Source of the DNA: a virus
DNA length: 64,000 bases
Strand: one strand, 5' to 3'
Virus record (IMG/VR): IMGVR_UViG_2921643360_000001
Location: 1-64,000 of that record
In this document: in pieces, positions 481 to 58,629 of the stretch
How the letters are laid out: each line of letters starts with the position of its first letter
Position numbering within the stretch: the first letter of the stretch is position 1
Translations under genes and position numbers: made by a program
The notes under the pieces: generated by a model
Told to the model about the DNA's origin: nothing
Seen by the model: only the letters and a program-made list of their open reading frames with translations
Databases searched by the model: none

Positions 481-1554
481 TCAGCGCGTCGGGCCCACTT
501 TTTCACCTCGGCGCTTCCGAACATAGTGCTCGGTCATGGTAACGGATTCGTGCCCAAGCTGCTTCTGTGCTTCTCGAATGTCGCCCGATGAATCCGCCTT
601 GTCTGTCGCCGCTTTCGCGCGCAAATCGCGTAACTGAAACGAGTTGTCGTCCTTGATGCCCGCCGCCCTTCGGGCGTTCTTGAAGCGCATCTGCATCGCG
701 TTCAGGGTCATCCGTTGGCCCTTCTCGTTGACCACCAGCGCTGTGCTCACGACCTTGTACGACGCCTTGCGGGCTTTGATCCGCTCGATGGCCGTTTTCA
801 GTTCTCCAGCGATCTCCATGCGAATTTTCTTGCCAGTCTTGCCCTGGTCGATCAGAAGGAACCCGTCGCGGATATCTCGCTCGTCAAAATTCAGCGTGTC
901 CTGCGGGCGCTGGCCGGCCAGGTAAGCCAAGTCCATAAAATCCTTGGTCGGCTGGTCGGCCTTCTCATACACGCGCGCAAACAGGTCATCTTCAACGTAG
1001 ACGTCGCGCCCTTCCACCGTGTTCCTCTTGACACCCGTACACGGGTTGGCCGCCTTAGTCAGACCAACTGCGCGAGCCTTGTTGAATATATGGCTGAACA
1101 GCGAGAGTTCCCTGTTAGCGCGCGCATGACCGGCGTTAGGTGGGGCTGCCCTCCCCTTGCTGGCGAACCACTTGACAGACTTCTCATAGCGCCAGCGCAG
1201 ATATGCACTGACATGCATCGGCTCGATCTCGTCGAGGGGTGTGTCGTCTTCGAAGTATTCTTTGAGATTCGCCAACTCCTCCAAGTTGTCTGACTGAGTT
1301 CGCGGCTTCTTGCGGGGCAATTCCTCCCGCAGATAGACGGTCACGGCGTCCCGAAATGTGCTCCCGGCATCTTTCGGCGTATCGGCCTGCTCGATCTCAG
1401 CCCAGCGCGTGACGGCCTTCCGGTAGTCCGTCCCAAGCGACTCCTCGCGTCGAGGTTTGCCGCCGTGGTCGTAGTAATAGTAGATCGTCTCGCCGCGGTG
1501 ACGGGCGCGCATCCCTGGCGGCAAATGAGTGTTGCGCGTCGGCTTCCTGCCCAT
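481..1554 (-). CDS. int: phage integrase (tyrosine recombinase)
   Basis: 357-aa ORF. C-terminal catalytic box has the R..HxxR..Y pattern (LRDLRAKAATD...HESVTMTEHYVR). It is the terminal gene of the minus-strand early block near the window edge. Confidence 0.9.
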   Translation of the reverse strand: MGRKPTRNTHLPPGMRARHRGETIYYYYDHGGKPRREESLGTDYRKAVTRWAEIEQADTPKDAGSTFRDAVTVYLREELPRKKPRTQSDNLEELANLKEYFEDDTPLDEIEPMHVSAYLRWRYEKSVKWFASKGRAAPPNAGHARANRELSLFSHIFNKARAVGLTKAANPCTGVKRNTVEGRDVYVEDDLFARVYEKADQPTKDFMDLAYLAGQRPQDTLNFDERDIRDGFLLIDQGKTGKKIRMEIAGELKTAIERIKARKASYKVVSTALVVNEKGQRMTLNAMQMRFKNARRAAGIKDDNSFQLRDLRAKAATDKADSSGDIREAQKQLGHESVTMTEHYVRKRRGEKVGPTR

Positions 1555-1558: not shown

Positions 1559-1795
1559 TTATCCTGCGGCTAGAAACTTCGGTTGCCATTTCTTCTTTGG
1601 CGGCTCGGCCTTGGTCTGCCGCCCTTCAATGGCCGTCCTCGGAATTATCGGACGCCCGCGCGCATTCTGCCAGAACGGGATACCCGACGTCCGCAGCCAT
1701 TCGACCTGTAATTCCTCCCGCGTCTTCCCGCGTCGGCCGATTCGCACGCCAGTAAGTTCGGCGACTTCATCAGCAGACAGAAACGTGTCGCTCAT
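1559..1795 (-). CDS. excisionase / AlpA-like small DNA-binding protein
   Basis: 78-aa basic ORF 4 nt upstream of int on the same strand. HTH-like N-terminus (LSADEVAELTGVRIGRRG). Confidence 0.55.
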   Translation of the reverse strand: MSDTFLSADEVAELTGVRIGRRGKTREELQVEWLRTSGIPFWQNARGRPIIPRTAIEGRQTKAEPPKKKWQPKFLAAG

Positions 1796-2903: not shown

Positions 2904-3269
2904 TCATCTCCCGAATCCAGCGGACAATGCCGCCCACTCTTCCCCGGCTCGCCATCGCGTAGCTGCGGGCATTGCGAATGGGCGCACTCGCCATCCCGGC
3001 CCGCTGCGCATCCGGTAAGTTTGACGCTCAGCTTTCACTGGCTCGGGGCCATTCGGGCCTTGGCGCAACTCGCGGATAGCCTCGGCATATTCCGTCGCGC
3101 TAAAGTCATGACCGATGCGCTTCTCGCAAGCCTTCGCCGCCTCCTCCAGCGCACCCCGCCTCGCCGCCTCCATCACCTCCCCCGCCACTTCCGCCCAATC
3201 CACGATCTGACCGTTGCAATACTTGATCGCGTGATCGAAGAGGATGTCGCCTGCTTCTGCGTTGGTCAT
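2904..3269 (-). CDS. hypothetical protein
   Basis: 121-aa ORF, coupled to 3266..3766. Confidence 0.4.
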   Translation of the reverse strand: MTNAEAGDILFDHAIKYCNGQIVDWAEVAGEVMEAARRGALEEAAKACEKRIGHDFSATEYAEAIRELRQGPNGPEPVKAERQTYRMRSGPGWRVRPFAMPAATRWRAGEEWAALSAGFGR

Positions 3270-3766
3270 GGGGTCTCCTTGGCGGGAAATGCGGTGAGAG
3301 CGATTCGCGCAACACGCCCAGCCCAGCCAGGGTCAAGCGCCATCTCCACCGGGTCTTGCTTGGCAATGTCTTCGAGTGCTTCGCGTAAAGTCCTGTTCTG
3401 CTCCACTAAATCAGCAATCAACTCGCCGTCTTCGATATCTGCATCGCTGGCGCGCGGAAGGGCTGGTTCGCCCATGTGAGTAGGTCCATTCACAGACGCC
3501 ATGAACTTGCGATTCAGTTCTTCAGCTTCAATCGCGCGCTTCTTCCACCCAAGCAACTCGCACCAATCCTCATGATCGGCATCCATGCCGGGTGCAACAC
3601 TGTTTCCGCATGATTGGCAGCGCCTAGGGGCATCAAGACCGAGAGTTCCCGCATCAAAGGCTGGCTGCGATGCACCCGCAATCGCAACCGCCAGCGCATG
3701 AACGTCCAGGCCGCCGCCGTAGTCGATGTGTTCGCGGATTAGTGCGTCTGCTTCGTCGTAGGTCAT
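3266..3766 (-). CDS. hypothetical protein
   Basis: 166-aa acidic ORF in early-left operon. Confidence 0.45.
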   Translation of the reverse strand: MTYDEADALIREHIDYGGGLDVHALAVAIAGASQPAFDAGTLGLDAPRRCQSCGNSVAPGMDADHEDWCELLGWKKRAIEAEELNRKFMASVNGPTHMGEPALPRASDADIEDGELIADLVEQNRTLREALEDIAKQDPVEMALDPGWAGRVARIALTAFPAKETP

Positions 3767-3805
3767 GGTGTCCTCATTGGACCCGGAGAACCGGGCCCGC
3801 CTCCG

Positions 3806-4639
3806 TTACTTGCTGAGTTGGATCATCGGCATTGCGCTGCCCATCATGTACTGAGGGTAGTGCCCGTCCCATTTGGCGATCTTCTGTTGCTCGATCAGCG
3901 CGGGGTTTGCCTCAAGCGATTTGCCCGTCAGCTCATTGGCCTTGGCGTTGTTCTCAGCAACCTTCAGCGCTGCCTCAGACTCAACGACGCGCTTTTGCGC
4001 TTCCCACTTCGTCTGGGCAATTTCGTTCTCGACGCGCAATGCGTTCTGCTGGGCGGTGATCTTCGCCTCAATGGCGTCGTTGAACTGCTTGCTAAACTGG
4101 AAGTCAACGATGTTCACCGCCGACACATTCACGCCGATATTCTTGAACCGAGTCAGCAACGCCTCGCGGATCTCCTGACTAACCTGGTCCCGCTTCTGAA
4201 TCAGGTCAGTAGCTTCGTATCGGGCCACGATAGCCTTCACGATGTCATGCACTGCCGGGTCCATGACTTGCGCCCACGGATCGCCGCCGAGATTGGCATA
4301 AACGCCGACTGCCGCAGTCGGAAGAATATTGAAGTTGACGGCGACCTTCATGTCGGCCTGTTGCAGGTCTTTTGAAGAACCCGCGATATCCGATTGCGCC
4401 TTGTACACGCCGATGTAGACCGTGTGCATCGACTGCGAAATCGGCATACGGAAGTGGATGCCGGGCTCGTACACCGTGGCGGATGGAGCGCCGAACGTGG
4501 TCATCACGCCGACGTAGCCCGCTGGCACGGATGCGAACGGCCAGAGGATGAAAAGCGCGATGAGCAATACAACTGCGCCGATAGCGCCGAGGATCAGCTT
4601 GATGCCGCCTCGCGGGACTTCTCTGGATGCAACAGCCAT
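3806..4639 (-). CDS. SPFH / band-7 (prohibitin, HflK/HflC-like) membrane protein
   Basis: N-terminal TM helix (LILGAIGAVVLLIALFILWPF) followed by a band-7 core (GYVGVMTTFG...) and a C-terminal coiled-coil/Ala-rich tail. Start chosen at Met47 of the listed ORF (ATG at 4637-4639), which has an AAGGA RBS 7 nt upstream. Confidence 0.8.
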   Translation of the reverse strand: MAVASREVPRGGIKLILGAIGAVVLLIALFILWPFASVPAGYVGVMTTFGAPSATVYEPGIHFRMPISQSMHTVYIGVYKAQSDIAGSSKDLQQADMKVAVNFNILPTAAVGVYANLGGDPWAQVMDPAVHDIVKAIVARYEATDLIQKRDQVSQEIREALLTRFKNIGVNVSAVNIVDFQFSKQFNDAIEAKITAQQNALRVENEIAQTKWEAQKRVVESEAALKVAENNAKANELTGKSLEANPALIEQQKIAKWDGHYPQYMMGSAMPMIQLSK

Positions 4640-4795
4640 TTGATTTTCCTTGTGGGTAGAAAAAGAGACCCGAACCGAAGTCCGGGCCTTAAGCGCCGTC
4701 CCAGTGGACCTACTGGCACGGATGGAGAAGAAGTGCCGCTGCCCTTGGTTCATGCGAAACGCGCTAGGCCAATGCATGTGGGCTGCGGCGGTAAG

Positions 4796-5227
4796 TCAGA
4801 ACGGCACATCGTCCGCCATGTCCTCGAAACCACCACCAGCCGGCGCACGTTGCGGCGCTGGACGCTGCTGCGGCTTCGGTGCTGGCGCGGGCGCTTGCTG
4901 CTGCGGCTGACCACCTCCCGCCAGGTCAATTGCAGTGATCCGACCGGCGAGCTTCACGCCTTCGGTGCCGTCCGCTTTCTTGAATGTCTCGATGTGTGTG
5001 TCTTCCAGCGCGACGGTAACAAGCGCGCCTTTCGTGAAGTACGGGGCCAACGCCTCTGCGCGCTTACCCCACAAAGCACCGTCGACCCACTGAACCGGCT
5101 TCTTTCCGTCGTCGCCCTTGCGCCCATAACTGAACGCCAGTGAGACGCTCGCGACGGCATCGCCGCCCGTTGTGTTGCGCACTTCAACATCTCGACCGAT
5201 GCGGGCCAATCCGAAAATTTGAATCAT
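4796..5227 (-). CDS. ssb: single-stranded DNA-binding protein
   Basis: OB-fold N-terminus, Gly/Gln/Pro-rich linker and the canonical acidic C-terminal tail ...DMADDVPF. Confidence 0.85.
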   Translation of the reverse strand: MIQIFGLARIGRDVEVRNTTGGDAVASVSLAFSYGRKGDDGKKPVQWVDGALWGKRAEALAPYFTKGALVTVALEDTHIETFKKADGTEGVKLAGRITAIDLAGGGQPQQQAPAPAPKPQQRPAPQRAPAGGGFEDMADDVPF

Positions 5228-5250
5228 GATTCGCTCTTGTGTAAGGTGGA

Positions 5251-5904
5251 TCAGGCGGCCATCGCCGCAATTTGTTTGTGGGTTGCGTCGACTTCGAACA
5301 GAAACTGACGCAACGCCACTTCGTACTCTTTGATCAGCGCTTCATCACGCTCCCATCGGAAGACGAACAGTTGCAGCTTCTCCGGCATGTCGGGATCGAA
5401 GCTCACAAAGTCGACGAACTCCGCGCCGGTCACCAGCGTGTTGTGCAGTACCTGATTCATGTACGTCGGCGGGATGCGTTTCTCAATCAGATACTTGAAG
5501 TGCGTTTTGGTCTTCGGGCACTTGCCCTCCCACAGACCAAGGCGACCGCCATCGACCAGAAGTCCATCCGGGCTGCAGCCCGCCATCATGTCTTCGCGGT
5601 AGACGAACCCGCATTGCTCGACCGCGATGCCGGTTTGGATCTCGTATCGCATCCTGGCGAATGGCTCTCGGTCATGCCCGCGCTCAGTGTCTGCGCTCGA
5701 AAACTCATCCGCGCACGATTTGCACAGCAATCGCTCAAGAGCCAGTTGCACGCGGTAATCGGCCCGCGTCGCCGCCTCTCCAGAACCGGACCTTGCCTTG
5801 GCGGTGACTGCTGCTGCGTTTGAGCCCGTAACACGTCCGGCGCGGTCAGCCATCCATTCTGGTGTGTTTTGCGGATGCTCCGAGACGATGAAATTCCGCT
5901 TCAT
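5251..5904 (-). CDS. YqaJ-like viral recombinase-domain exonuclease (lambda Exo-like)
   Basis: Start chosen at MKRNFIVSEHPQNTPEW (ATG 5902-5904), which overlaps the stop of the upstream annealing-protein gene. PD-(D/E)xK-like region (DGLLVDGGRLGLWEGK). Paired with an ERF-type SSAP. Confidence 0.75.
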   Translation of the reverse strand: MKRNFIVSEHPQNTPEWMADRAGRVTGSNAAAVTAKARSGSGEAATRADYRVQLALERLLCKSCADEFSSADTERGHDREPFARMRYEIQTGIAVEQCGFVYREDMMAGCSPDGLLVDGGRLGLWEGKCPKTKTHFKYLIEKRIPPTYMNQVLHNTLVTGAEFVDFVSFDPDMPEKLQLFVFRWERDEALIKEYEVALRQFLFEVDATHKQIAAMAA

Positions 5905-6713
5905 TGCGCACTCCCTCCGATTTCGCCCTTCTTCTTGTCGGCCAAAACCTTGAACTGGTTCCAGCTTGCGACGTCGCCAATCGCCTCGAACGCTGCGCCA
6001 GCCATTGCGCGAATGCGACGAATGTCGTCGGCGGTGGCTGCGGACGTCAACTGGGTTTCCCACTTCATCCAAGTTTCGTCGGCGCTAGGCTTGCCATCAG
6101 ACCCATGGCCGTCGTCGTCGGCCTGATCCTTGGTGGCTAAGCCAACAGCAGCCAGCAGCGAATAGCGCTCCAGGTAGGTCACGGTCGACGACATCGCCTG
6201 GATGCTGTTCTTCCCTCCAGACTGGTCAAGGCCGGCCTCAAGCGTCGTTTCTTCGCTATGGCCCAGCTTGTGTTTGATGACGCACGTGATGGACATCATT
6301 CCGCCTTCGGTGCGACGCGGAATCCAGCGATGACTGAATCCATAGGTCGCTAGCGACGCAACCACCTTTTCCACTACGTTGCCGATGGTGGCGTGGTCGT
6401 ACGCGGTGACCCCGCTGTTCGTCTTGAACTCGACGTGCTTGTCCTTGAGGATCGTCGGCGGGTTCAGCTTGAACTCAGCCATTGATGCGTCAAACGCCTT
6501 CCTCGCCTCGCGGTCTTCCCACTGCATTTGCATCTGCATGAGCCGTTCAAGACGATCAAGGTCGGCACCACTTTCAAGCGCATATCGCACAAGGTCTGCC
6601 GGCGTGGCGGATGCCGCGGTGACAGCGCGCGTCTGTTGAACTGCCGGTGGCTTTGCTGCGATCGGTTCGGCCATCTCAACATCTGTAATGTCTGCCATGG
6701 TTGCGGTTTGCAT
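5901..6713 (-). CDS. erf: ERF-family single-strand annealing protein
   Basis: Core resembles P22 Erf (SSTVTYLERYSLLAAVGLA vs SSYARKYCLNGLFGIDD), followed by an acidic DQADDDG stretch. Sits next to the exonuclease and SSB. Confidence 0.65.
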   Translation of the reverse strand: MQTATMADITDVEMAEPIAAKPPAVQQTRAVTAASATPADLVRYALESGADLDRLERLMQMQMQWEDREARKAFDASMAEFKLNPPTILKDKHVEFKTNSGVTAYDHATIGNVVEKVVASLATYGFSHRWIPRRTEGGMMSITCVIKHKLGHSEETTLEAGLDQSGGKNSIQAMSSTVTYLERYSLLAAVGLATKDQADDDGHGSDGKPSADETWMKWETQLTSAATADDIRRIRAMAGAAFEAIGDVASWNQFKVLADKKKGEIGGSAQ

Positions 6714-6724: not shown

Positions 6725-7924
6725 TTAGTTAGCGGCGACGTTCGCGGCAGCGAAATACTCATCCGCTGCGGCGTAGTCGAATTTCTTCATCCAGCCCATT
6801 ACGTCGCCGATCTCGACGTCGTATTGGTCGGCCAGCAACTTCACAATCTCCACATCACCGGGGCCGTTTGCGGCGAATTGTTCCTGTTCGCGTCGGATTT
6901 GCTCTTGCACGGCGGCTCGGCGCACTGCCTCGATTCGATCAGCTTCGGCGCGTGCGGCGGCGTCAGCCTCTTCCTTCTTACGGCGTTCTTCGGCGGCTAC
7001 TCGCGCGGCCTCGGCGGCAATCGCTTCCTGCTTCTCACGCTCAACGCGGGCTGCTTCATCCGCTTGGCGTTGGCGTTCGGCGTCAATCTCGGCTTGCTGG
7101 CGAGCCATTTCGGCCTGGTGTTCGCGGACCTGCTTTGCGTGCGCCTCTTGTTCCGCCCGCAACTCGGCGGCGGCCTTATCCTGCTCAGCCTTCACGCGGG
7201 CCGCCTCACGTTCGCGGGCCTCACGTGCCAATTGCTCATCAAGCGCGCGCGCCTGTGCGATTTGCCGATCGCGTTCGGCCTGCGCCCGTCGTTCCGCCTC
7301 CAGCGCTGCACGTTCCTCAGCGAGCTTGGCTTGTGCGGCTTCGTGCGCTTGCTGGGCGATCAGCGCTTCGCAAAGTTTCGCCAGCGCGGCCACTTTGGAC
7401 ATCTCCGCTTCACCGGCAAGCTCGGCAAACTCTTCCAGAGTGATTTCGTGTGTCGACAGTTCGTCAATCGCGCCTTGAATCTCGGCGGCGGACTTACCCA
7501 TCGCAAAGACGATCGAATCCTTGATCTGGTCGATCTTGGCGCGGATGCCGTCGACACGTTGTTTCTCGGCGGCGGCTTTGGCGGCTTTCTCGGCCTCACG
7601 TTCCTTATCCCACGCGTCACGCAACGCAAGCAGCCGGGTTTCTTCTGCCGAAATAATCGCGATGCGGCGCTTTACCTCGGCAATCACTGCCTTCTGAAAC
7701 GCGTTCGCATCCTCACGGGCCACTTCGCCGGTCTTGGTCGTCGCGATTCGCGCATTGCCTAATTCCATCGCCGCGGCGTGACATTGCTGGCGCGCGGCTG
7801 GGTTCTTGATCTCCACAATATCGACGTACTTTTTCGATAGCGCGATCAGGGCCTTCTCGCCTTCGTCGGCGCCAAGCGCAAGCGCTGCGCGCTCAGGCAC
7901 CGTCAATTCATTCTTCTCTTCCAC
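6725..7924 (-). CDS. long coiled-coil protein, unknown function
   Basis: 399-aa ORF with a roughly 250-aa A/E/R/Q-rich heptad-like stretch (EAERRAQAERDRQIAQARALDEQLAREAREREAARVKAEQ...). Confidence 0.5.
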   Translation of the reverse strand: MEEKNELTVPERAALALGADEGEKALIALSKKYVDIVEIKNPAARQQCHAAAMELGNARIATTKTGEVAREDANAFQKAVIAEVKRRIAIISAEETRLLALRDAWDKEREAEKAAKAAAEKQRVDGIRAKIDQIKDSIVFAMGKSAAEIQGAIDELSTHEITLEEFAELAGEAEMSKVAALAKLCEALIAQQAHEAAQAKLAEERAALEAERRAQAERDRQIAQARALDEQLAREAREREAARVKAEQDKAAAELRAEQEAHAKQVREHQAEMARQQAEIDAERQRQADEAARVEREKQEAIAAEAARVAAEERRKKEEADAAARAEADRIEAVRRAAVQEQIRREQEQFAANGPGDVEIVKLLADQYDVEIGDVMGWMKKFDYAAADEYFAAANVAAN

Positions 7925-11370: not shown

Positions 11371-12083
11371 AATACTGACGGGAGGGCGCTGTTACTGTGC
11401 CGCCGACTTCGGCTAACCTACTGCACCGCCATGCGCATGTTTCAGCGATGGGCTAACGTGGCTCAGTTTCGCGGGTACTCGTCGTTGGCAGGGAGCCCAG
11501 CGGGCCCTTTCGTCAATACTCGTCTCATGGAACGGGGCCGGCGGTTTCCATCTGATCCGGCTTGGGGCGTGGCACTGATTCCCCGCTTGTACGGCATATG
11601 CCGCTCATACCACCTATCACCGGAAGTTCGCGCCATTTAGGTCGTTCGACCGCAGGACTACCAGAGCCGGTTTCGATCTTGCTGCCCGTCACCACCGGGC
11701 TACCCGTTCCATCAAACTGCTTCTTCGGACCCATCCGGCTACACCTGGCAGGCCAGCTCCGGCCTGGGTCCGTCCTACTCCTCCACCAACCGCGCAACTC
11801 ACAAGGTCACGCGACTGCCGCAGGTGCGTTCGCTTTCTACTCGAGCGAACAGCTTTGTTCCGAGCTGCGAAAAGAAACCCCGCAGAATGGTTGGCTTAAC
11901 TACGCCTTTTGCGCACCATGGGCGCGACGTACTGTGAAGTTGTTAAAGAGCCCTCAGACTGCGAGGTGCGCCGTTGCGCGGTGTTGCTGGTATGGATAGA
12001 ACGATAGCAAACGCTCTCGAAGAACGCAAGCAAAAGCTATCGTTGATCGATAAATTTTTTTAGCGCTAGTGTTGCGCAGAAAC

Positions 12084-12105
12084 AAAAAAGCCCGCCGAAG
12101 CGGGC
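12084..12105 (-). terminator. rho-independent terminator downstream of the repressor gene
   Basis: GCCCGC-CGAA-GCGGGC hairpin, followed on the minus strand by TTTTTTGTTT. Lies 23 nt past the cI stop. Confidence 0.7.
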
Positions 12106-12127
12106 TGAACAAGCGTTTGAGTGTTTT

Positions 12128-12910
12128 TCAGGTGCTGCGATACATGCCGGATCCGCGCGGCACGATGGCGCCTACACGATGGATAGACACGATATCGGCC
12201 AGCGACCTCGTGATTGGAGGAATGCCATTGTTGATCGAACCAAGGCTGACTTCCTCATCACGGATCCACAACAATTCTTTGACGACAGCGCTGCCGTCGA
12301 CAAACTTGACCACCACATCATCACCCGGAAGAGCTTCGACGCCGGGTTCCACAACGATGTGTTCGCCACTCTTTATGCGCGGCCTCATGCTATCGCCGCG
12401 CACCTTCAAACCATAGGCCGTTGGGTCTGGTGAATGGATGTTGAGCCATCCATGGCCGTGACCTGGCGGATAGTCGTCGATACTGATAAACCCATCCGGC
12501 CCACCCTGCACTTCCCCGACCACGGCTATATCCCTCCCAGCCTTTAGTTCCAATCGCTCGCCAACGTTTGCTTCTGCTCGTGGCAGGCCTTCGATACTAG
12601 CCCCACCTTTCGGGACCGAAGGCGCAATCATGCCTGACTTTTGCCGGTTCTTCGAGATATCAGTGTCCGCTGAAATGTGGTTGCCGGTGACGCCCAAATC
12701 GAAGTAGAGAGTCGGCAAGCCAAGTTCGGACTCGAGTCGCCGCGCAGCTCCTTCGCCGAACCCGCGTCCCTCCCGATAGTTCGGGTTCAGCAGTTGTCGG
12801 ATCCGAGCCGCATCCTGGTTGTGCAGTCGAGCGAATTCAGCGGCGACCCCTCCCGCCTCCCTGTCCACTAGTTCCTGTAGCCGCTTACGGCGGTGCGCAT
12901 GTATGTCCAT
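12128..12910 (-). CDS. cI-type repressor (N-terminal HTH + C-terminal S24 LexA-like autopeptidase)
   Basis: S24 Ser/Lys dyad motifs (GDSMRPRIKSGEHIVVEP; VVKELL). Transcribed divergently from a cro-like gene. Start chosen at MDIHAHRRKRLQ (ATG 12908-12910). Confidence 0.85.
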   Translation of the reverse strand: MDIHAHRRKRLQELVDREAGGVAAEFARLHNQDAARIRQLLNPNYREGRGFGEGAARRLESELGLPTLYFDLGVTGNHISADTDISKNRQKSGMIAPSVPKGGASIEGLPRAEANVGERLELKAGRDIAVVGEVQGGPDGFISIDDYPPGHGHGWLNIHSPDPTAYGLKVRGDSMRPRIKSGEHIVVEPGVEALPGDDVVVKFVDGSAVVKELLWIRDEEVSLGSINNGIPPITRSLADIVSIHRVGAIVPRGSGMYRST

Positions 12911-12932
12911 GGCGGAATTAGAACCGAAAACT

Positions 12933-13001
12933 AGCATTTGCTGTGAAAGCAGAATTTATCATTTCAGCACGCAAATGCTTGCGTTTAGCGGAAGCATTTG
13001 C
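12933..13001. promoter_or_regulatory. operator region of the immunity switch (three copies of AGCATTTGC / GCAAATGCT)
   Basis: AGCATTTGC at 12933-12941 and 12993-13001; the inverted copy GCAAATGCT at 12971-12979. All lie in the 103-bp gap between the divergent repressor and cro starts. Confidence 0.55.
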
Positions 13002-13013: not shown

Positions 13014-13343
13014 ATGGATACCTTTCGCACCTACTTCAAAGGGCTGACCAAGGCCGAACGCGACGCGCTCGCCAAACAGGTCGGTACGACGGCTGCCTAT
13101 CTCTGGCAGATCGCCTACAAACAGCGTCGCTGCAACGAGTCGATGGCTATCGAGATTGAGAAAGCATCGCAGCGCGCGGTGACGGTCGAAGACCTTCGTC
13201 CCGATGTCGACTGGGCGTACGTCCGGAACTCGGCTCAGTCGATTGCCGATAGTGAAATTGTAGACCGCGCGCAGGCGAGCGACGACGCGCAACCGCCTGT
13301 AGGTCGCGGGAGCGCAGCTAGACACAAAAAAAGCAGTCAATAA
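13014..13343 (+). CDS. Cro / YdaS-like HTH regulator
   Basis: Starts at the internal ATG (MDTFRTYFKGLTKAERDALAKQVGTTAAYLWQIAYKQRRC...). Small basic HTH protein opposite cI. The listed ORF starts at TTG inside the operator region. Confidence 0.6.
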   Translation: MDTFRTYFKGLTKAERDALAKQVGTTAAYLWQIAYKQRRCNESMAIEIEKASQRAVTVEDLRPDVDWAYVRNSAQSIADSEIVDRAQASDDAQPPVGRGSAARHKKSSQ

Positions 13344-13491: not shown

Positions 13492-13842
13492 ATGGACGAC
13501 GAACTGGCAATGGTTGGCGGGATGGTGAAGCGGCCTGATTTCCTGCCTGACGAAGTGATTGATGCCTGCAAGAGCTACCGCGATGCGGTCAGGGTCTCGT
13601 GGGAATACCGAAGGATCAAGCAGATGCACCGCTGCACGCTGGCAGAAAGAATCGATCGGAAGGCGCAGCACGTTTCCGATTACCTCGCGCAGGATGACGA
13701 GCCACATCGGCGGAATCTTCCTGCCGATTCTCTCGATCTGTGGGCGTGTGCTGTTGGCAATTTCGGCGTCCAGCAATGGCTTAACCGCCAGTCACGCTTG
13801 ACGATTCTCGAGGAAGTGATTGCGGAGAGGGCTGCAGCATGA
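13492..13842 (+). CDS. CII-like transcriptional activator (HTH)
   Basis: 116 aa at the cII position in the switch. HTH-like segment QMHRCTLAERIDRKAQHVSDYLAQ. Confidence 0.45.
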   Translation: MDDELAMVGGMVKRPDFLPDEVIDACKSYRDAVRVSWEYRRIKQMHRCTLAERIDRKAQHVSDYLAQDDEPHRRNLPADSLDLWACAVGNFGVQQWLNRQSRLTILEEVIAERAAA

Positions 13843-14710: not shown

Positions 14711-15556
14711 TTGATTACTGAATTGCAACTGCATCCGCTCTGCACTCTCTTCCCGAGAATTGTCGGTGCGGAATTTGAGGCGTTGAAGGCGGACATCGTC
14801 GCCAATGGCCTGCGTCAGCCGATTGTGGTCCACGACGGCATGATCCTGGACGGCGGCAATCGCTATCGTGCCTGTATCGAGGCTGGAATCGAACCGTCTA
14901 CGGTTGAATTTGATGGCGGCAATCTGGTGTCGTTCGTCCTGTCGGCCAATCTGCATCGCCGCCACCTGTCAGAAGGCCAGCATGCCGCAATCGTCGCGAG
15001 CGCCCAGCAATGGGAGTCCGCGCAATCGCAAGGGAGACCGAAGAAAACCGGTAACGTTACCGGATTATCGACAGTGGCAGAGAGACGGGCGGTATCTGGC
15101 GCAAGCGATAAGACGCAGCGCATGGCGGACAAGGTGGCGAGAGAGTCACCGGAACTCGCAAAGAAAGTCGCGCAAGGCGAAGTCAGCCTTCCTAAAGCAA
15201 TCAAGCAGCTCGCGCCTGCAAAGGCCGCCCCAGTAGCGGAACCTGAGCCCGAACAGGTCGAGGCCGCAGAGGAGGAGTTTGGCCCTAGCGCGGAAGAGAT
15301 CGCATTTCTTGAGGCGACCGAACAGGCCGACAGAGACGCCTATAACAACCTTGTCGAGATCGCAGCGGCTGACGACAAACTCGCCGAGGCGCTTGCACTG
15401 GTCGTCACGCAAACCCATGAGATCGCACGACTCAGGGCGCTTGTTCGTGTCGTAGAAGAGTCGCGCGACGGCAAGATGATGACGATCAACGAGCAGATCC
15501 GCACGATCAAATCATTGCAGCGAAAACTCGAAAAATTCGAAAGGACTGCGGCATGA
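14711..15556 (+). CDS. ParB-like nuclease-domain protein
   Basis: N-terminal ParB/Srx fold (LHPLCTLFPRI...GLRQPIVVHDGMILDGGNRYRACIEAGIE) and an acidic Ala-rich C-terminus. TTG start inferred. Confidence 0.7.
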   Translation: MITELQLHPLCTLFPRIVGAEFEALKADIVANGLRQPIVVHDGMILDGGNRYRACIEAGIEPSTVEFDGGNLVSFVLSANLHRRHLSEGQHAAIVASAQQWESAQSQGRPKKTGNVTGLSTVAERRAVSGASDKTQRMADKVARESPELAKKVAQGEVSLPKAIKQLAPAKAAPVAEPEPEQVEAAEEEFGPSAEEIAFLEATEQADRDAYNNLVEIAAADDKLAEALALVVTQTHEIARLRALVRVVEESRDGKMMTINEQIRTIKSLQRKLEKFERTAA

Positions 15557-17085
15557 ATCACGTTCTCTTTGAAGATCGGCCCAACTACGAGACTGTTAGC
15601 TTCCCTAAGCCGCGACCGTTCCAGACTTCGGCGCACGACCGGCTTCGCGAAGGACGGCGCGCAGGACACAAGAATCAACTCGTGATGGCTCCGACTGGCG
15701 CCGGCAAATCTTATCTTGGTCTCCGCATCGCTCATGAAGCATTGGCGAAGGGGCGCAAGGCGATTTTCGTTTGCGACCGCGAGGCGTTGATCGACCAGAC
15801 TAGCGAGGTCGCAGACAAATATGGCCTAAGCGCGCATGGAGTCATCAAGGCGAATCACTGGCGCGTAAATCGCGATATGCCATTCCAGATCGCGAGCGCG
15901 CAGACGTTGGCTCGTCGCGGATGGCCCGAAGATATGGACGTGATCATCATCGATGAAGCGCACACCCAGTACACGGTATGGCGAGATTACATCCCGAACT
16001 GCCGCGCGTCCGTCATTGGATTGTCTGCAACTCCGTTTTCAGATGGTCTAGGAAAGCTTTTTAGCAATCTGATCAATGCCACGACTATGCACGACCTCAC
16101 CGAATCCGGCGTGCTTGTGCCGATGCGCGTGTTCTCGTGCAAGAAAACCAATATGGACGGCGCTGCAACTCGCGGTGGCGAGTGGACCGATTCCGCCGCC
16201 GAGGAGCGCGGCATGGAAATCGTCGGTGATGTGGTGGCCGAATGGATGAAGCTTGGCGAAGGCCGCAAGACAATCGTCTTTGGTTCCACGATCAAGCATT
16301 GCGAGGAATTGTGCCGGGAATTCAATGCCGCTGGCGTGATGGCCGCCGTGTTCACATCTGAAACGCCGCCCGAACAGCGCAAGCCGCTCCTTGAGGAATA
16401 CCGAAAGCGTAACTCAGTGTTGCGCGTGCTGATTAGCGTTGAGGCTCTGGCGAAGGGATTTGATGTGCAGGATGTTGGCTGCGTTGTCGACTGTCGGCCT
16501 CTCCGCAAGTCTCTAAGCACGGCAATCCAAATGTGGGGAAGAGGCCTGCGTTCGTCGCCGGAAACTGGTAAGCAAGATTGCCTGCTTCTTGATCATAGCG
16601 GGAACATCACCCGGTTTTTGGATGACTACACCGACATTTTCTATAACGGCCTCGACGCGTTGGATGCTGGTGAAAAGCTGGATAAGGCGGTGCGCAAGGA
16701 GCCTGAAGAGAAGGAGGTGGTCGCCTGCCCTTCATGCGGCTATAAGCCTTTCGGACGGCGCTGCATGTCGTGCGGATTCGAGCCGAAATCTTCAGCCCTT
16801 GTGGAGGCCGTACCCGGTGAAATGCAGGAGGTCGTTATAGGAAAAAGGAAATTGGCCGACGACAAACGGCACCTATATGCGCAGATCTGCACATATGCGC
16901 GCTCCCATAGTGACCCAGACAAGCAGCGTGGGCGGGCGGCGCACCTTTATCGAAAAATCATGGGCGATTGGCCGCCACGTGACTTCGTGTTCGAGAAGAC
17001 GGAGAACGTCACCATCGAGCGCAACACACTGAACAAGATCAAATCAACCAACATTGCTGCGGCAAAGGCGCGCTCAAATGGCTGA
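15553..17085 (+). CDS. SF2 DEAD/DEAH-box DNA helicase with C-terminal zinc ribbon
   Basis: Walker A (MAPTGAGKS), DEAH box (IIIDEAH), SAT motif, helicase-C motifs, and CPSCG...CMSCG at the C-terminus. Confidence 0.85.
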   Translation: MNHVLFEDRPNYETVSFPKPRPFQTSAHDRLREGRRAGHKNQLVMAPTGAGKSYLGLRIAHEALAKGRKAIFVCDREALIDQTSEVADKYGLSAHGVIKANHWRVNRDMPFQIASAQTLARRGWPEDMDVIIIDEAHTQYTVWRDYIPNCRASVIGLSATPFSDGLGKLFSNLINATTMHDLTESGVLVPMRVFSCKKTNMDGAATRGGEWTDSAAEERGMEIVGDVVAEWMKLGEGRKTIVFGSTIKHCEELCREFNAAGVMAAVFTSETPPEQRKPLLEEYRKRNSVLRVLISVEALAKGFDVQDVGCVVDCRPLRKSLSTAIQMWGRGLRSSPETGKQDCLLLDHSGNITRFLDDYTDIFYNGLDALDAGEKLDKAVRKEPEEKEVVACPSCGYKPFGRRCMSCGFEPKSSALVEAVPGEMQEVVIGKRKLADDKRHLYAQICTYARSHSDPDKQRGRAAHLYRKIMGDWPPRDFVFEKTENVTIERNTLNKIKSTNIAAAKARSNG

Positions 17086-21582: not shown

Positions 21583-22199
21583 AGAAACTGATTCTCAAGA
21601 AACTGTTGCGGGTGCATTCCAACGCCTGCTCTACGCCCTACTACCACCTGTCCGGCTACATGCTACGCGACTGGATTCTCGGTTACCGCAGCCCGGATCG
21701 AAACGCCGATAACCCAGCATGGAAAGCGGGCTTTAGCCCGAAGTCGTCGGCGCTCTATCGCTGGATCTGCCGCAACGTCGCTATCCGCGCTCACACGATC
21801 CTGCGCAGCGACAACGACCGTCACTTGCACGACCATCCGTCGTGGTCGCTGTCGATCGTGCTGTCGGGCGGGTATTGGGAAGTGTGCGAGCCGACCGAAT
21901 GGGCGAAGCAATTCGGAGCAACGTACCGCCGAATCGTCGACGGACTCGACCGGGGAATGATCGACAACGAAGACAGTTACGAACTCGACTACGTTGCACG
22001 GTTCGGAATCTTCTGGCGCGGACCCGGCGCGATCGTCCTGCGTCGCGCTACTGACTTCCATCGCCTGATCCTGCCACGTGGCACGGTCGCCAAGTCAATA
22101 TTCGTCATGGGCAAGAAAACCAACAGTTGGGGCTTCCTGACGCCTAACGGCAAGGTCTACTGGCGCACGTATCTCGGTCTCGACAAGGAACAAGCATGA
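21579..22199 (+). CDS. hypothetical protein
   Basis: 206 aa. Contains a His-rich segment (HLHDHPSWSLSIVLSGGYWEV); the fold is not recognised. Confidence 0.45.
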   Translation: MKKLILKKLLRVHSNACSTPYYHLSGYMLRDWILGYRSPDRNADNPAWKAGFSPKSSALYRWICRNVAIRAHTILRSDNDRHLHDHPSWSLSIVLSGGYWEVCEPTEWAKQFGATYRRIVDGLDRGMIDNEDSYELDYVARFGIFWRGPGAIVLRRATDFHRLILPRGTVAKSIFVMGKKTNSWGFLTPNGKVYWRTYLGLDKEQA

Positions 22200-23266
22200 C
22201 TCTCGAACACTCGCAGACAGGCGGAATCGGAGACGTCAATTCCAGCGAGCGCGGCTCCGGAGCGAGATACAACACGGGCAAGGTTGCTATCGAGTTGATC
22301 CCTCTGCGTCTGATCGCGGAACAACTTGAACACGCCACGTCGGAAGACGATCCGCAAAACACGCTTATCGGCGCCCTGTGGAATCTCGCGTTGTTTCAGG
22401 AAGGCGGCGAGGCGCATTACCTGCGCGCGGCAATCGAAAACGTCGGATCGGCATGGGACGAATGCGCGGCGGTATTCGACTACGGGCGGAAGAAATATAG
22501 CAAGCGAGGTGATTGCACATGCAGTGCGGGCGATGCGGTACGACTGAACCTGAGCGGTTCTATCTATACACCTACAAAGGCGCAAACATCCGAAAGTTGC
22601 TCAAGGGATTTTGCAAGCCTTGCTACGACAAAGACCTCAAAGAGCGGAATCCAGGGTATCGGAAGCGACAAACCGAAAACCATCGAAAGTGGCTCGCAAA
22701 CCCTGAGAACAGAGAGCGAGCGCGCGCATCTGAACGGAAGCGATCTGCAAAGCGAAAGCTGGACCCAAATTACAAGGAGCAATCCAAGCTCTACCGAATC
22801 AAGCAGGAATACGGACTCACGCCTGAGCAGTACGACACCCTCATCGCGGCAGGATGCGCAATCTGCGGAAGCTTCGATCGATTGCATGTCGACCATTGCC
22901 ACGACAAAGGACACGTCAGAGCAGCGTTATGCCATTCCTGCAACATTGGCCTTGGATTTGTCGAAAGGCCTAACGGCTGGCTTGAGCGCGCACTCGAATA
23001 CCTGCGGCGTACATCAGACGCCGGGGCACACGGGTAACTGGAACTGGGCCAAGGGAATGGCGTGGAGCGTTCCCCTCGCCTGCGCTGCCCGCCATCTGAT
23101 CTTCGGCATGATGGCCGGTGAAGAACTCGACCCTGAATCGGGCCTGCCCCATCGCGGTCACTTCCTCTGCAATCTCGTGATGCTGCTGACGTTCATGCGG
23201 ACCTATCCGGAGGGAGATGATCGTCCGTCGCAATGGTTGGCTACGCCGACACAGGAAGCCGCATGA
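22196..23266 (+). CDS. MazG-like dATP/dGTP pyrophosphohydrolase-family protein interrupted by a 540-bp insertion (reading frame stays open)
   Basis: N-terminal 100 aa and C-terminal 75 aa look like protein. The central 180 aa are S/T-rich low complexity and correspond to an alternative frame of the nested HNH gene. Confidence 0.45.
   Translation: MTLEHSQTGGIGDVNSSERGSGARYNTGKVAIELIPLRLIAEQLEHATSEDDPQNTLIGALWNLALFQEGGEAHYLRAAIENVGSAWDECAAVFDYGRKKYSKRGDCTCSAGDAVRLNLSGSIYTPTKAQTSESCSRDFASLATTKTSKSGIQGIGSDKPKTIESGSQTLRTESERAHLNGSDLQSESWTQITRSNPSSTESSRNTDSRLSSTTPSSRQDAQSAEASIDCMSTIATTKDTSEQRYAIPATLALDLSKGLTAGLSAHSNTCGVHQTPGHTGNWNWAKGMAWSVPLACAARHLIFGMMAGEELDPESGLPHRGHFLCNLVMLLTFMRTYPEGDDRPSQWLATPTQEAA
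22519..23037 (+). CDS. endonuclease VII-family HNH nuclease
   Basis: LHVDHCHDKGHVRAALCHSCNIGLG is the EndoVII/HNH signature. GAGGTG RBS 8 nt upstream of ATG 22519. Lies wholly inside 22196..23266 in a different frame. Confidence 0.75.
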   Translation: MQCGRCGTTEPERFYLYTYKGANIRKLLKGFCKPCYDKDLKERNPGYRKRQTENHRKWLANPENRERARASERKRSAKRKLDPNYKEQSKLYRIKQEYGLTPEQYDTLIAAGCAICGSFDRLHVDHCHDKGHVRAALCHSCNIGLGFVERPNGWLERALEYLRRTSDAGAHG

Positions 23267-53928: not shown

Positions 53929-55242
53929 ATGCTTATTTCGAAAATCGGCGGGGCGGTAAATAAGGTAGCGATGTCGGTCAAGCATCGCGTCGTCGGGCGG
54001 GCGATCTCTACGCTAGAGAAACCTCATCAGGCAGTTCCCGATGTCGCGATTCCCGATGTTCCCGAGACGGATGAGTCTGTTCTCGCTCGATCCGAGTCTA
54101 TTATTTCCCGGGCAATTTCTGCTGGCCGATCTGGCAAGCTGACCGTTGTTCCTGAGATGATCTCCGTCGCGGCCACGGAAAACTGCAATCTTAAGTGTGT
54201 TATGTGCCCAGGTCATGCGGGTATGAGCGGTCCGAAACTCTCAGTCAATGAGGCCGAAATGCTATTCGCCTCGCTCGCTGTTGAAGGCCCGCATTTTGGG
54301 TCGCCGAAGATCCTAGACATGACATCTGGTGAGCCCACGCTCAACCCCGACCTAGGGCCAATTTACGGCCGATTCAAAGAACTTTTCCCCGATTCGAAGA
54401 TTTCGATGATAAGCAACGGGACGATCCCCGTTCGCGGTCGAACCCGTGAAGCATTCGAACATGCTGACCGCATCGGTCTTTCGATGGACGGCGCGACGCA
54501 GGAGACGTATGAGCGGATCCGTCAAGGGTCGATATGGAAGAACGTCATTCGCAATGTGATGGACGTTGCTGAAATCAAGAAGTTGGGTGAGAACTGCGAG
54601 ACGTTGCAGATCATGATGGTTGTTATGGACCAGAATATCCATGAACTACCTGAAATGATCCGCCTCGCACATTCCCTTGGAATTCCGCAAGTGTTCGCGC
54701 AGGTTTCTGAGATTCGTACTACCCCCTTCAATATCGCAGGGCAGAACGTTTCGCTTACTCTCTCAAAGGAAAAACTCGCCCCTATAGTACACGAGGCGAA
54801 GCAGGAGGCTCAGCGACTCGGCTTGGATTTGACTCTTACGGCGCATCTGGAAAATTCACTCGTTCCGGATGAGCCAAAGCAACCAGCGACTGCTCAGATG
54901 ACACATGACGAGCGCGCGTTGAGTGTCGCGATTCGAACGTGTAATGTGCCGTGGATGCATGCACCGCGCATTTCGCAAAATCACGATGGGATCTACCCCA
55001 CAACGGTTTGCTGCCATATGCCGAATGTCCATGGCGCTGGCAATTTGGCACGCCGGGAGGAGTTCCGCGGGAAGTCGATCAACGAAATCTTCAACTCGCC
55101 ATACTATTGGGAAATTCGGGCTGGGTTGATGGATGGATCGCTTGCCAATGATGCATGCAAGGGTTGCCAGTATCACCAGATGACGCAGTGGACGGCCACC
55201 CAATTGCGCGAATTGGAAGAGGCCGTCGATGCATCAGTTTGA
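53929..55242 (+). CDS. radical SAM enzyme with C-terminal SPASM/twitch-like Cys cluster
   Basis: CNLKCVMC (the CxxxCxxC motif), SGEPTLNP glycine-rich SAM motif, and C-terminal CNVPW...CCHMP...CKGCQY. The first 60 nt are about 52 % GC, against higher-GC flanks. Confidence 0.85.
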   Translation: MLISKIGGAVNKVAMSVKHRVVGRAISTLEKPHQAVPDVAIPDVPETDESVLARSESIISRAISAGRSGKLTVVPEMISVAATENCNLKCVMCPGHAGMSGPKLSVNEAEMLFASLAVEGPHFGSPKILDMTSGEPTLNPDLGPIYGRFKELFPDSKISMISNGTIPVRGRTREAFEHADRIGLSMDGATQETYERIRQGSIWKNVIRNVMDVAEIKKLGENCETLQIMMVVMDQNIHELPEMIRLAHSLGIPQVFAQVSEIRTTPFNIAGQNVSLTLSKEKLAPIVHEAKQEAQRLGLDLTLTAHLENSLVPDEPKQPATAQMTHDERALSVAIRTCNVPWMHAPRISQNHDGIYPTTVCCHMPNVHGAGNLARREEFRGKSINEIFNSPYYWEIRAGLMDGSLANDACKGCQYHQMTQWTATQLRELEEAVDASV

Positions 55243-55706: not shown

Positions 55707-56504
55707 CTAAAATTTTATTTTCAGCTCCAGCGCATCGGCATCATTCCACAGTGGCGGAATTTCGCGCTTGTTGCTGTTGATGCTCATGAAGTAATGCCTG
55801 TAGCTCAAGGTGAGGCGACCGTTTCCTACGGACAGCCCAGCAACGGGCGCGACGGACCAGTAGGCATCGGAAACGCTGATGTCCTGTGCCGTCTGCGTTG
55901 GCCACGCCTTCCACCCGGCGACGTGCTCGGACCACGAGTCACGATGCACATAGGCGCCGACTTCTGCGCCGACGCGGACGCCGTAGACCCAGTAGTACGG
56001 CTCAAGCGTCAGCGCGACACCTTGTGATCGTCCTTCGCCCGTGAAATACGCCTGCGGTACGTCAACCTTACGCGTGTAAGAGTGCGACGATGGGTCGTAA
56101 TTCGCGTCATTCGGCGTGCATGAGCAGTCGGCTGCAGCGCGACCAAGATTGACGTATTCGGCGTGCCAGTCGACGCCCCATTTGCCGCGAGTGATGAGCG
56201 GACCAGTGAAGCCAGCAGAGAAAGCCGGCGGCTTGCTCGTCAGCTTTGAGCCGCCCGGAATGCCCTCCTGGTACCAGCGACCATCGGTCGTGGTGTACTT
56301 GGCCGCGCCAATGCCCAATTCGACCTGAACGTAATCGTTGATGTAATCAGCATGCGCCGACGCAGCGGCACAGCCCAAACTCATCGCAACAGCCGCCGCA
56401 CGCCACCGCGACCCAACGCGGCGATTCGTGCGTGAAGCCGTAACCTGTTGGCGCGGAACTCGGCGACCGCGTGAAGCCTGAACCACCCGATTTTGCGTGT
56501 GCAT
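55707..56504 (-). CDS. outer-membrane beta-barrel protein (Lom/Ail-like or PagL-like moron)
   Basis: Signal peptide (RWRAAAVAMSLGCAAASAHA|DY); alternating amphipathic beta-strands; C-terminus ...LELKIKF ends in Phe. The true start is uncertain. Confidence 0.6.
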   Translation of the reverse strand: MHTQNRVVQASRGRRVPRQQVTASRTNRRVGSRWRAAAVAMSLGCAAASAHADYINDYVQVELGIGAAKYTTTDGRWYQEGIPGGSKLTSKPPAFSAGFTGPLITRGKWGVDWHAEYVNLGRAAADCSCTPNDANYDPSSHSYTRKVDVPQAYFTGEGRSQGVALTLEPYYWVYGVRVGAEVGAYVHRDSWSEHVAGWKAWPTQTAQDISVSDAYWSVAPVAGLSVGNGRLTLSYRHYFMSINSNKREIPPLWNDADALELKIKF

Positions 56505-56506
56505 TT

Positions 56507-58014: not shown

Positions 58015-58629
58015 ATGCAACTCACAGCACAGATTGTCGCGTCAGGGTGTGGCTCAGCGCTTCTTCGGGCGGCGCAGTGGGTCGCCCCGCTCCAATCCGC
58101 CTGCGACCGCTACCACATCGACACGCCTCTGCGCGTCGCGGCCTTCCTGTCGCAGATCGGCGTCGAGTCTGCCCGCCTCACCGCCCTCGTCGAAAACCTG
58201 AATTACTCGGCAGAGGGTTTGCTCGCAACCTTCCCGAAGTACTTCAACGCAGTGCAGGCGGCGCAGTACGAGCGACAGCCGCAGCGCATCGCGAATCACG
58301 TCTACGCGAATCGGTACGGCAATGGTGACGAGGCGAGCGGAGATGGATTTCGATTTCGCGGCAGAGCGTTGCTCCAGATAACCTTTAGAGACAACTATGC
58401 CTCATGCGGTAAGGCGATTGCGCTGCCTCTCGACTCACATCCTGAGTTGCTTGAGCAACCATGCAATGCGGCGCTCGCGGCTGGCTGGTATTGGGACTCG
58501 CGCAACCTTAACCCGCTGGCCGATGCCGGTCGATTCGAGGGCATCACGCGCGCTATCAACGGCGGGCTCGCAGCGTATTCCGAACGCCTCGCTCTCTATA
58601 GCGCTGCAAAGAAGTCACTCGGTATCTGA
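58015..58629 (+). CDS. endolysin, glycoside hydrolase family 19 (chitinase-like)
   Basis: GH19 catalytic signature GNGDEASGDGFRFRGRALLQITFRDNY. Confidence 0.85.
   Translation: MQLTAQIVASGCGSALLRAAQWVAPLQSACDRYHIDTPLRVAAFLSQIGVESARLTALVENLNYSAEGLLATFPKYFNAVQAAQYERQPQRIANHVYANRYGNGDEASGDGFRFRGRALLQITFRDNYASCGKAIALPLDSHPELLEQPCNAALAAGWYWDSRNLNPLADAGRFEGITRAINGGLAAYSERLALYSAAKKSLGI

Follow-up and report, generated by a model that had tools for sequence, protein, structure and literature searches.

What role could a membrane scaffold protein play for a temperate phage that encodes it next to its recombination genes? This question is raised by one gene in a 64,000-nucleotide stretch of viral DNA (IMG/VR record IMGVR_UViG_2921643360_000001, positions 1 to 64,000), which is referred to here as the window. 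Judged by its gene content, the element is a temperate prophage of the myovirus type that looks complete, and its host is Paraburkholderia steynii. The gene in question is an 834-nt open reading frame (ORF) at window positions 3806-4639 on the minus strand, with a product of 277 amino acids (aa) that belongs to the SPFH (Band 7) superfamily. An earlier note on this DNA had described the product as HflKC-like, had located its gene at the position of lambda CIII, and had suggested that the phage might use it to modulate the host protease FtsH and so tune the lysis-lysogeny decision. Sequence comparisons and a structure model indicate that the gene encodes a prohibitin-type scaffold with a single N-terminal anchor, an SPFH domain, a helix of ~70 residues and a KWDGHxP tail. 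A cage on FtsH is the explanation of its function that we favor, although we hold it tentatively and by analogy.

The SPFH gene and its product

The SPFH protein is 100% identical to the product of NCBI BZM27_05770 (Paraburkholderia steynii, 72-kb contig, 277 aa). A monomer model of the protein was built with AlphaFold2 (AF2) on 31 homologues and had a mean predicted local distance difference test score (pLDDT) of 79.6. The features of the gene and its upstream flank are listed below.

3806..4639, minus strand: gene for a prohibitin-family SPFH (Band 7) membrane protein, 277 aa (ORF and translation, Pfam, PHROG, PDB, Foldseek)
3806..3874, minus strand: conserved C-terminal tail, with the KWDGHYP motif at residues 256-262 followed by the rest to residue 277 and the stop codon (31-homologue alignment)
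3872..4090, minus strand: predicted long coiled-coil-type helix, residues 184-256 (AF2 helices 184-244 and 246-256; aligns with the PHB1/2 coiled coil)
4010..4531, minus strand: SPFH/Band_7 domain, residues 37-210 (Pfam envelope; AF2 alpha/beta core 35-182, pLDDT 85-92)
4535..4603, minus strand: N-terminal signal-anchor transmembrane (TM) helix, ~residues 13-35, predicted N-in/C-out (hydropathy, K/R bias, AF2 helix 10-31)
4640..4664, minus strand: leader with ribosome-binding site (RBS; AAGGA at 4647-4651), part of a conserved mobile cassette (nucleotide homology)
4656..4689, minus strand: terminator-like hairpin with a 10-bp stem at 4666-4689, plus T-run, between ssb and the SPFH gene (scan match)

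The mechanical ORF of the gene reaches upstream as far as 4777. The Met at 4639 was taken as the start because the RBS, the starts of the homologues and the 277-aa NCBI record agree. Directly before this Met lies AAGGAAAATCAA, the AAGGA RBS is 8-12 nt upstream, and close homologues share the same Met as their start in the 31-homologue alignment. An extension to 4777 would also cross the terminator-like hairpin upstream of the gene.

The earlier description of a Band 7 core behind an N-terminal TM helix was borne out by Pfam, by hydropathy and by the AF2 model. Pfam Band_7 (PF01145) spans residues 37-210 with E=9.3e-32 and 110.9 bits, against a gathering cut-off of 23.6. Residues ~13-35 form the sole strongly hydrophobic segment, and the best 19-residue Kyte-Doolittle window starts at residue 15 with a mean of 2.93. 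In the AF2 model, a TM helix at 10-31 is followed by an alpha/beta SPFH core at 35-182 and by the ~70-residue helix at 184-256. In solved SPFH assemblies, this long helix is an element of the cage wall. Three K/R residues stand before the TM segment, whereas the 15 residues that follow it contain none. Because of this bias, the positive-inside rule predicts a type II signal anchor with its N terminus inside, and the bulk of the protein would be in the periplasm.

About 20 of the 277 residues remain after the coiled coil. W257, G259 and P262 of the KWDGHYP motif are invariant in the 31-homologue alignment, and phrog_38808 matches residues 221-275. Residues 260-277 are of low confidence in the AF2 monomer. 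The protein as a whole matches PHROG_200 with E=3.2e-50 (residues 15-276 against profile positions 80-360 of 379), a family that carries the label 'lipoprotein'. The SPFH protein has zero Cys and hence no lipobox; therefore, it is not a lipoprotein, and the label was rejected for this member.

Placement within the SPFH superfamily

The subfamily placement was based on profile and structure rankings (NCBIfam, phmmer against PDB, and Foldseek). Against the NCBIfam equivalog models, the SPFH protein scored 27.1 bits with TIGR01933 (HflK), for which the cut-off is 159.4, and 25.0 bits with TIGR01932 (HflC), for which it is 134.4. The HflK profile match covered merely positions 10-181 of 261. When all PDB sequences were searched with phmmer, the best matches were human PHB2 (E=2.9e-22, query residues 13-255) and PHB1 (E=2e-19), with HflC (E=0.016) and erlin-1 (E=0.018) at lower ranks. 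With the AF2 model as the Foldseek query, the top six matches were chains of human prohibitin complexes (E=1.6e-19 to 1e-14, 25-29% identity). Stomatin, HflC/HflK and erlin came next at ~1e-13 to 1e-12, and then QmcA (7e-11) and flotillin (1e-9). Relatives at 84-87% identity carry the NCBI name 'prohibitin family protein'.

Because the PDB and Foldseek rankings favor PHB1/2, sequence and model together place the protein in the prohibitin branch, and it is neither an HflK/C orthologue nor of the flotillin/YqiK type. HflK/HflC orthology was rejected since the scores were far under both NCBIfam cut-offs and the PDB ranking put prohibitins first. The term 'HflKC-like' is therefore correct at the level of the superfamily but not as orthology, given these scores and a single gene in place of a pair. 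Membership of a flotillin or YqiK-type clade, which the earlier note had named beforehand as speaking against its proposal, was also checked and was not what the rankings gave. A component of a known defence system was considered as a separate candidate and was rejected, as the best PADLOC model matches were insignificant (E=0.008 and 0.02).

A mobile cassette under purifying selection

Loci compared with the window are designated by L numbers. Nucleotide homology to other prophage copies of the gene (82% for L001, 80% for L088 and 78% for L002) starts at 4664, which is ~25 nt before the ATG and includes the RBS, and stops at the stop codon (3805). The flanks are unrelated. On this evidence, the SPFH gene is a mobile cassette that consists of exactly the RBS and the ORF and is passed among unrelated Burkholderiaceae prophages, a finding that is new here.

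The slot occupied by the cassette was compared among phages of the clade at ≥69% identity. Five independent contexts have the SPFH gene directly after a recombination module, and these modules are not homologous to each other:

Window: Erf-YqaJ-SSB
L001/L006: AAA_24 with PolB-like exonuclease
L002: RecT-YqaJ
L087: ERF-YqaJ-NinB
L092: YqaJ

Three phage contexts (L086, L088 and L093) have another slot. The preferred position of the cassette is usually after a recombination module and behind a terminator-like hairpin, which is also new here.

The ratio of nonsynonymous to synonymous substitution rates (dN/dS) among phage copies of the gene was 0.08-0.14, at dS of ~0.9-2.3. By this measure, the SPFH gene is under strong purifying selection. 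A chromosomal relative with 74% identity is a stand-alone gene flanked by an RND/FUSC efflux operon and a DHDPS gene (8001-8861 in L003 and L004; 10001-10726 in L007), and no phage genes were found within 8 kb on either side of it in these loci. It occurs in Burkholderia sp. Ax-1724 and two metagenomic contigs, and also in Paraburkholderia sp. Ac-20336, according to the NCBI name for an identical protein. The existence of a 74%-identical chromosomal copy is therefore evidence of recent gene exchange between phage and chromosome.

Partner genes were sought by clustering four neighbors on each side of the SPFH gene at ~70 genome loci and 86 phage loci. No neighbor family was common to more than five (closely related) loci of this set. 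Pfam and PHROG matches of the neighbors, in the window and in the homologous loci examined, revealed no NfeD gene, second SPFH gene or protease gene beside the SPFH gene. A stomatin-NfeD type operon was rejected because NfeD was absent from the window neighbors and from the Pfam lists of eight homologous loci. The immediate neighbors in the window are ssb and a 166-aa ORF (3266-3766, minus strand), the latter downstream across a 39-bp gap. This ORF has no Pfam or PHROG match, and it is not a conserved partner because tblastn found no homologue of it in 88 related phage loci. By these comparisons, the SPFH gene is without a phage-encoded partner.

A gene at 6725-7924 (minus strand) encodes a 399-aa highly charged coiled-coil protein, phrog_21091. 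Homologues with 43-73% identity are found in L001 (4734-6131), L005 (phage CSP3, 7064-8353) and L092 (~7185-7905). In all, four Burkholderiaceae phages that are otherwise unlike each other have this gene no more than a few kb from the SPFH gene. This proximity may be due to co-travelling or merely to a shared phage lineage.

Operon position, comparison with the lambda map and expression signals

The genes that define the context of the SPFH gene are listed below. Matches to phrog_1 and phrog_8896 cover the integrase and excisionase genes, and matches to phrog_155, phrog_149 and phrog_44 cover the recombination module at 4796..6713. The immunity region also matches PHROG_4 and PHROG_35.

481-1554, minus strand: integrase (PHROG)
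1559-1795, minus strand: excisionase (PHROG)
4796-5227, minus strand: SSB (PHROG)
5251-5904, minus strand: YqaJ-type exonuclease (PHROG)
5901-6713, minus strand: Erf-type annealase (PHROG)
12128-12937, minus strand: S24 cI-like repressor (Pfam Peptidase_S24)
13014-13343, plus strand: Cro/YdaS-like gene, divergent from the cI-like repressor (Pfam YdaS_toxin)
13492-13842, plus strand: 116-aa unclassified ORF, earlier called cII-like (position after the cro-like gene)
58015-58629: GH19 endolysin-like gene of the lysis module, ~54 kb from the SPFH gene

Genes are on the minus strand throughout from ~11370 down to 481, including the SPFH gene, the recombination genes, xis and int. Six small unclassified ORFs lie between the SPFH gene and the excisionase gene. 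The ORF map and the PHROG matches thus agree with the earlier placement of the gene in an int-proximal leftward operon, adjoining ssb and the recombination genes. The terminase, portal, major head, tail sheath, tape measure, baseplate and tail-fibre genes are found at 32-53 kb. A search for att direct repeats of ≥13 bp between positions 1-600 and 45-64 kb gave one 13-mer, probably by chance, and no tRNA genes were found in the window.

The comparison with lambda CIII had to be corrected. On the annotated lambda map, the order leftward from pL is N, ral, ea10, cIII, kil, gam, bet, exo, orf60a, orf63, orf61, ea22, ea8.5, xis and int. Lambda cIII is promoter-proximal to the recombination genes gam-bet-exo, whereas the SPFH gene is promoter-distal to erf-exo-ssb. 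The operon is the same, but the slot is a different one, and it is equivalent to the accessory orf60a to ea8.5 stretch of lambda. The 'cII-like' label of the ORF at 13492-13842 was not upheld either. This ORF has no Pfam, PHROG or PDB sequence match, and no BLASTP alignment with lambda CII was obtained at E≤100. Lambda CII structures are present in the PDB. The label reflects only the position of the ORF behind the cro-like gene, which is where lambda has cII, because the Pfam, PHROG, PDB and CII comparisons were all negative. Both the homology and the positional analogy behind the earlier FtsH idea are looser than had been stated.

Between ssb and the RBS of the SPFH gene, a 10-bp G+C-rich hairpin is followed by CTTTTTCT (4689-4656). 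The hairpin at 4666-4689 folds at -16.6 kcal/mol, with z=-1.7. Non-homologous hairpin and T-run elements are found in the same place in L001, L087 and L088. Downstream of the SPFH gene, a hairpin with a T-run is present in L001 and L088, and the downstream hairpin of the window is without a T-run. A consensus scan of 3500-5400 detected no sigma-70-like promoter, which is a weak negative since such a scan could miss a Burkholderia promoter. There is no room for a promoter after the hairpin because just ~25 nt separate the T-run from the ATG. Set against the definition of a moron, which has its own promoter and terminator, the locus is a single-gene cassette with no promoter-like site and with a terminator-like hairpin upstream, 25 nt from the ATG.

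Several other parts of the prophage drew attention. The ~750 bp at 11371-12127 that separate the cI-like repressor from the first early-left gene contain just short ORFs (57-145 aa, on either strand). This interval probably contains pL and operators, and possibly an antitermination site, which bears on read-through of the 4666-4689 hairpin. On the early-right side, 14711-15556 (plus strand) encodes a 281-aa protein with weak ParB-like nuclease/partition matches (phrog_21315, E=8e-20; ParB-like PHROGs, ~1e-4), upstream of a large helicase gene at 15553-17085. A 356-aa protein encoded at 22196-23266 (plus strand) has a PF18909 dATP/dGTP diphosphohydrolase N-terminal domain (E=3.6e-18), which hints at a nucleotide-pool or DNA-modification function; L086 has queuosine/7-deazaguanine genes beside its SPFH gene. 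Directly after the tail-fibre genes, a radical SAM gene (53929-55242, plus strand) is followed by two opposite-strand genes (55707-57187, minus strand), one with a KilA-N domain. Placed between the tail and lysis modules, this stretch resembles an accessory island or a moron.

Distribution among phages and published proposals

With tblastn, SPFH homologues were found in 579 of 50,697 deposited phage genomes. All are below 60% identity, and 362 cover at least 80% of the query. The closest is that of Burkholderia phage CSP3 (orf75), with 41.5% identity. Counts by phage name include Staphylococcus (273), Pseudomonas (68), Klebsiella (37), Burkholderia (29) and Halorubrum viruses (16). SPFH relatives are also encoded by IMG/VR contigs (at least 472) and by genome stretches (at least 556). 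For ~200 of the 579 phage matches, the alignment is confined to the C-terminal part of the query, a third to a half of its length, with the coiled coil and the KWDG motif. These are variously annotated as lipoprotein, serine protease, transposase or 'RIIB lysis inhibitor', and they may represent a divergent or truncated SPFH subgroup.

Such genes have been noticed before. A link from HflKC to FtsH and CII, and hence to lysogeny, was proposed for Pseudomonas AH14b_p02 (PMC4936722). The HflKC/FtsH-lysogeny idea was also put forward for CSP3 orf75 (PMC10269572) and for Bruynoghevirus-related phages, in a paper that noted the gene in obligately lytic phages such as KPP10 and PAK_P3 (PMC8540360). 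T4-like phages RB43, 44RR and Aeh1 have Band 7 ORFs (PMC1524935). The Kayvirus homologue, MbpS, is located in the lysis module, between lysin genes and beside a holin-like protein (PMC7150955). The SPFH protein PM0222 of a Pasteurella multocida prophage island was experimentally shown to be a virulence factor, and this was the only functional study on such proteins that was found (PMC9872710). Our literature search found no experimental test of FtsH modulation, or of any other phage-side role, for a phage SPFH protein. Modulation of FtsH by these proteins is, by analogy, a reasonable guess: a plausible hypothesis already published in at least three genome papers, with no experiments.

Possible roles of the phage SPFH protein

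The explanation that we tentatively favor is that the phage protein acts as a prohibitin-type cage on FtsH. The SPFH protein probably forms a large homo-oligomer, with the shape of a ring or cage, at the periplasmic surface of the inner membrane, because the solved full-length SPFH complexes matched by Foldseek (prohibitin, HflK/C, stomatin, erlin, flotillin and QmcA) are all of this kind. It would probably be made from the antiterminated early-left transcript, as a delayed-early product of infection or induction and not constitutively in the lysogen, since the gene has no recognizable promoter of its own and has a terminator-like hairpin directly upstream. By analogy, the most likely client would be the host FtsH protease, with or without host SPFH proteins, because PHB1/2 (with m-AAA) and HflK/C (with FtsH) both cage an FtsH-family protease and gate substrate access. 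The expected outcome would be an altered turnover of FtsH substrates, either phage regulators or host membrane proteins, early in infection. HflK/C and the mitochondrial prohibitins, both of which cage FtsH-family proteases (PMC12005517), have the topology that is predicted for the phage protein, N-in with the SPFH domain in the periplasm. In plants, the stomatin-like protein SLP1 forms a megacomplex with FTSH4 (PMC13365137).

Several points weigh against a cage on FtsH. Binding of the phage protein to FtsH is proposed by analogy, and the protein failed both the HflK and the HflC equivalog models. HflKC forms a cage around FtsH, and a long C-terminal extension of HflK inside this cage contacts the protease (PMC12005517); the 277-aa phage protein has no counterpart of the extension. 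The FtsH-caging complexes HflK/C and PHB1/2 are heteromeric, whereas the phage has a single gene. The z-score of the upstream hairpin is modest, and a consensus scan could miss a Burkholderia promoter. Deletions of bacterial SPFH genes often give little or no phenotype (PMC13086221). Homologues are frequent in obligately lytic phages (Kayvirus, PAK_P3-like and T4-like), and that of Kayvirus sits in the lysis module (PMC7150955). The family is found in many phages that are strictly lytic, which speaks against a dedicated role in the lysis-lysogeny decision; for the same reason, such a role cannot be what the family does in general. An effect on this decision could be a consequence in temperate members.

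Another possible explanation, which we consider almost as likely, is that the cage works independently of FtsH as a microdomain or integrity scaffold for the inner membrane, which it would organize or stabilize while infection proceeds. Phage membrane proteins might be concentrated in this way, holin-triggered collapse might be kept from occurring too early, or the proton-motive force might be kept up during replication. SPFH proteins are generic membrane organizers with many clients (PMC12005517), and the occurrence of the family in lytic, temperate, jumbo and even haloarchaeal viruses favors a lifestyle-independent role. The location of MbpS among lysis genes (PMC7150955) and the lack of a conserved partner gene at the loci compared also fit this explanation. 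However, the window gene is ~54 kb from the lysis module and is grouped with early functions, no specific client can be named for a scaffold of this type, and the closest characterized relatives do have a protease client. A moron for lysogenic conversion or superinfection exclusion would instead be expressed from the prophage and block DNA entry by other phages or alter the envelope or virulence. The single mobile cassette in an accessory slot, the terminator-like elements on both sides of it in L001 and L088, and the 74%-identical stand-alone copy on Burkholderia and Paraburkholderia chromosomes are consistent with this. In addition, the CSP3 and DLP5 papers list their SPFH genes as morons (PMC10269572, PMC5834331), and the prophage-island protein PM0222 contributes to virulence (PMC9872710). 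We nevertheless regard a moron as unlikely: no promoter-like site was seen upstream, the 25 nt after the T-run leave no room for one, and no PADLOC defence model was matched. The occurrence in hundreds of strictly lytic phages is ill-suited to a benefit for the lysogen, and the phage protein has no lipobox or secretion features of the kind invoked for PM0222.

The phage copy could also be a dominant-negative mimic that co-assembles with a host prohibitin-family paralogue or with HflK/C and poisons or re-specifies the host cage. Protomers pack laterally in solved SPFH rings, hetero-oligomers are common among them (PHB1/2, HflK/C, erlin1/2 and flotillin1/2), and chromosomal homologues with 74% identity are present in the same bacterial group (L003, L004 and L007). 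The chromosomal paralogue in P. steynii itself is putative, though, and the chromosomal copy was seen in one species only in a non-exhaustive scan of one genome per species. Purifying selection on the whole protein fits a fully functional scaffold equally well. A mimic of this kind seems very unlikely to us. A wider proposal, which we regard as improbable but less so than the mimic, would make phage prohibitin-type SPFH proteins widespread, lifestyle-independent host-takeover factors. They would place their own cage on FtsH or co-assemble with host cages, and membrane proteolysis would be reprogrammed early in infection. In temperate phages, the stability of unstable regulators (a CII analogue, Xis) and thereby the frequency of lysogeny would be set secondarily, and the protein would be a cage-type counterpart of CIII.

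Phage SPFH/prohibitin genes are very common, and the window clade is under strong purifying selection. If the idea of a cage on FtsH is true, phages would have a second route besides CIII, and a structurally unrelated one, to control a key host membrane protease. Prohibitin-protease biology would also gain a bacterial model that is easy to work with. The window locus itself is an ordinary member of the PHROG_200 family, the hypothesis attached to it is already in print, and nothing about it would surprise a specialist. Its practical value is as a clean test case: the cassette holds one gene, its slot in the operon is defined, and close paralogues from chromosomes and phages can be compared with it.

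Comparison with known systems

Lambda CIII is a 54-aa cytoplasmic peptide that is a competitive substrate or inhibitor of FtsH. It shares with the SPFH gene a place in the pL operon of a temperate phage, and the hypothetical target, FtsH, would be the same. CIII has no sequence or structural relation to the phage SPFH protein.

The stomatin/QmcA-NfeD and flotillin/YqiK groups share the SPFH core fold with the phage protein (Foldseek: stomatin, 1e-13; QmcA, 7e-11; flotillin, 1e-9). Unlike in stomatin/QmcA-NfeD operons, an NfeD partner gene was not found beside the phage gene, and the long C-terminal domain of flotillin is not in the phage protein. QmcA and YqiK face the cytoplasm in E. coli, whereas the phage protein is predicted to face the periplasm.

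Burkholderia phage CSP3 orf75, phi1026b gp48, phiE125 gp43 and Kayvirus MbpS are members of PHROG_200 and belong to the same family as the window protein. The gene for gp48 of phi1026b, a temperate Burkholderia phage, is similarly placed in a leftward early region. In contrast, MbpS is encoded in a lysis module and the window gene in an early operon. The window clade differs from the deposited members in sequence: its identity to every deposited phage genome is below 42%.

E. coli HflK/HflC (PDB 7vhp, 7wi3, 9cz2) are the system that ties SPFH proteins to the stability of lambda CII. They share the superfamily, the predicted topology and the domain order with the phage protein, and match it in Foldseek with E of ~1e-13 to 1e-10 at 16-19% identity. 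HflK and HflC are encoded by an adjacent hflK-hflC pair and form a heterodimer, whereas the phage has a single SPFH gene. HflK is also much longer than the phage protein; the solved HflK/C chains are 259-299 residues of longer proteins.

The prohibitins PHB1/PHB2 (PDB 8rrh, 9o9z, 9unl) are the best match to the phage protein in both sequence and fold. The differences are an identity of ~25-29%, an obligate hetero-oligomer as opposed to one phage gene, the KWDGHxP C-terminal motif, which is a bacterial and phage feature, and another compartment with other clients. The similarities extend to size (272-299 aa), to the order of N-terminal anchor, SPFH domain and coiled coil, and to the location of most of the protein on the periplasm-equivalent side of the membrane. 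The ring formed by PHB1/2 regulates an FtsH-family (m-AAA) protease, AFG3L2 (PMC12005517).

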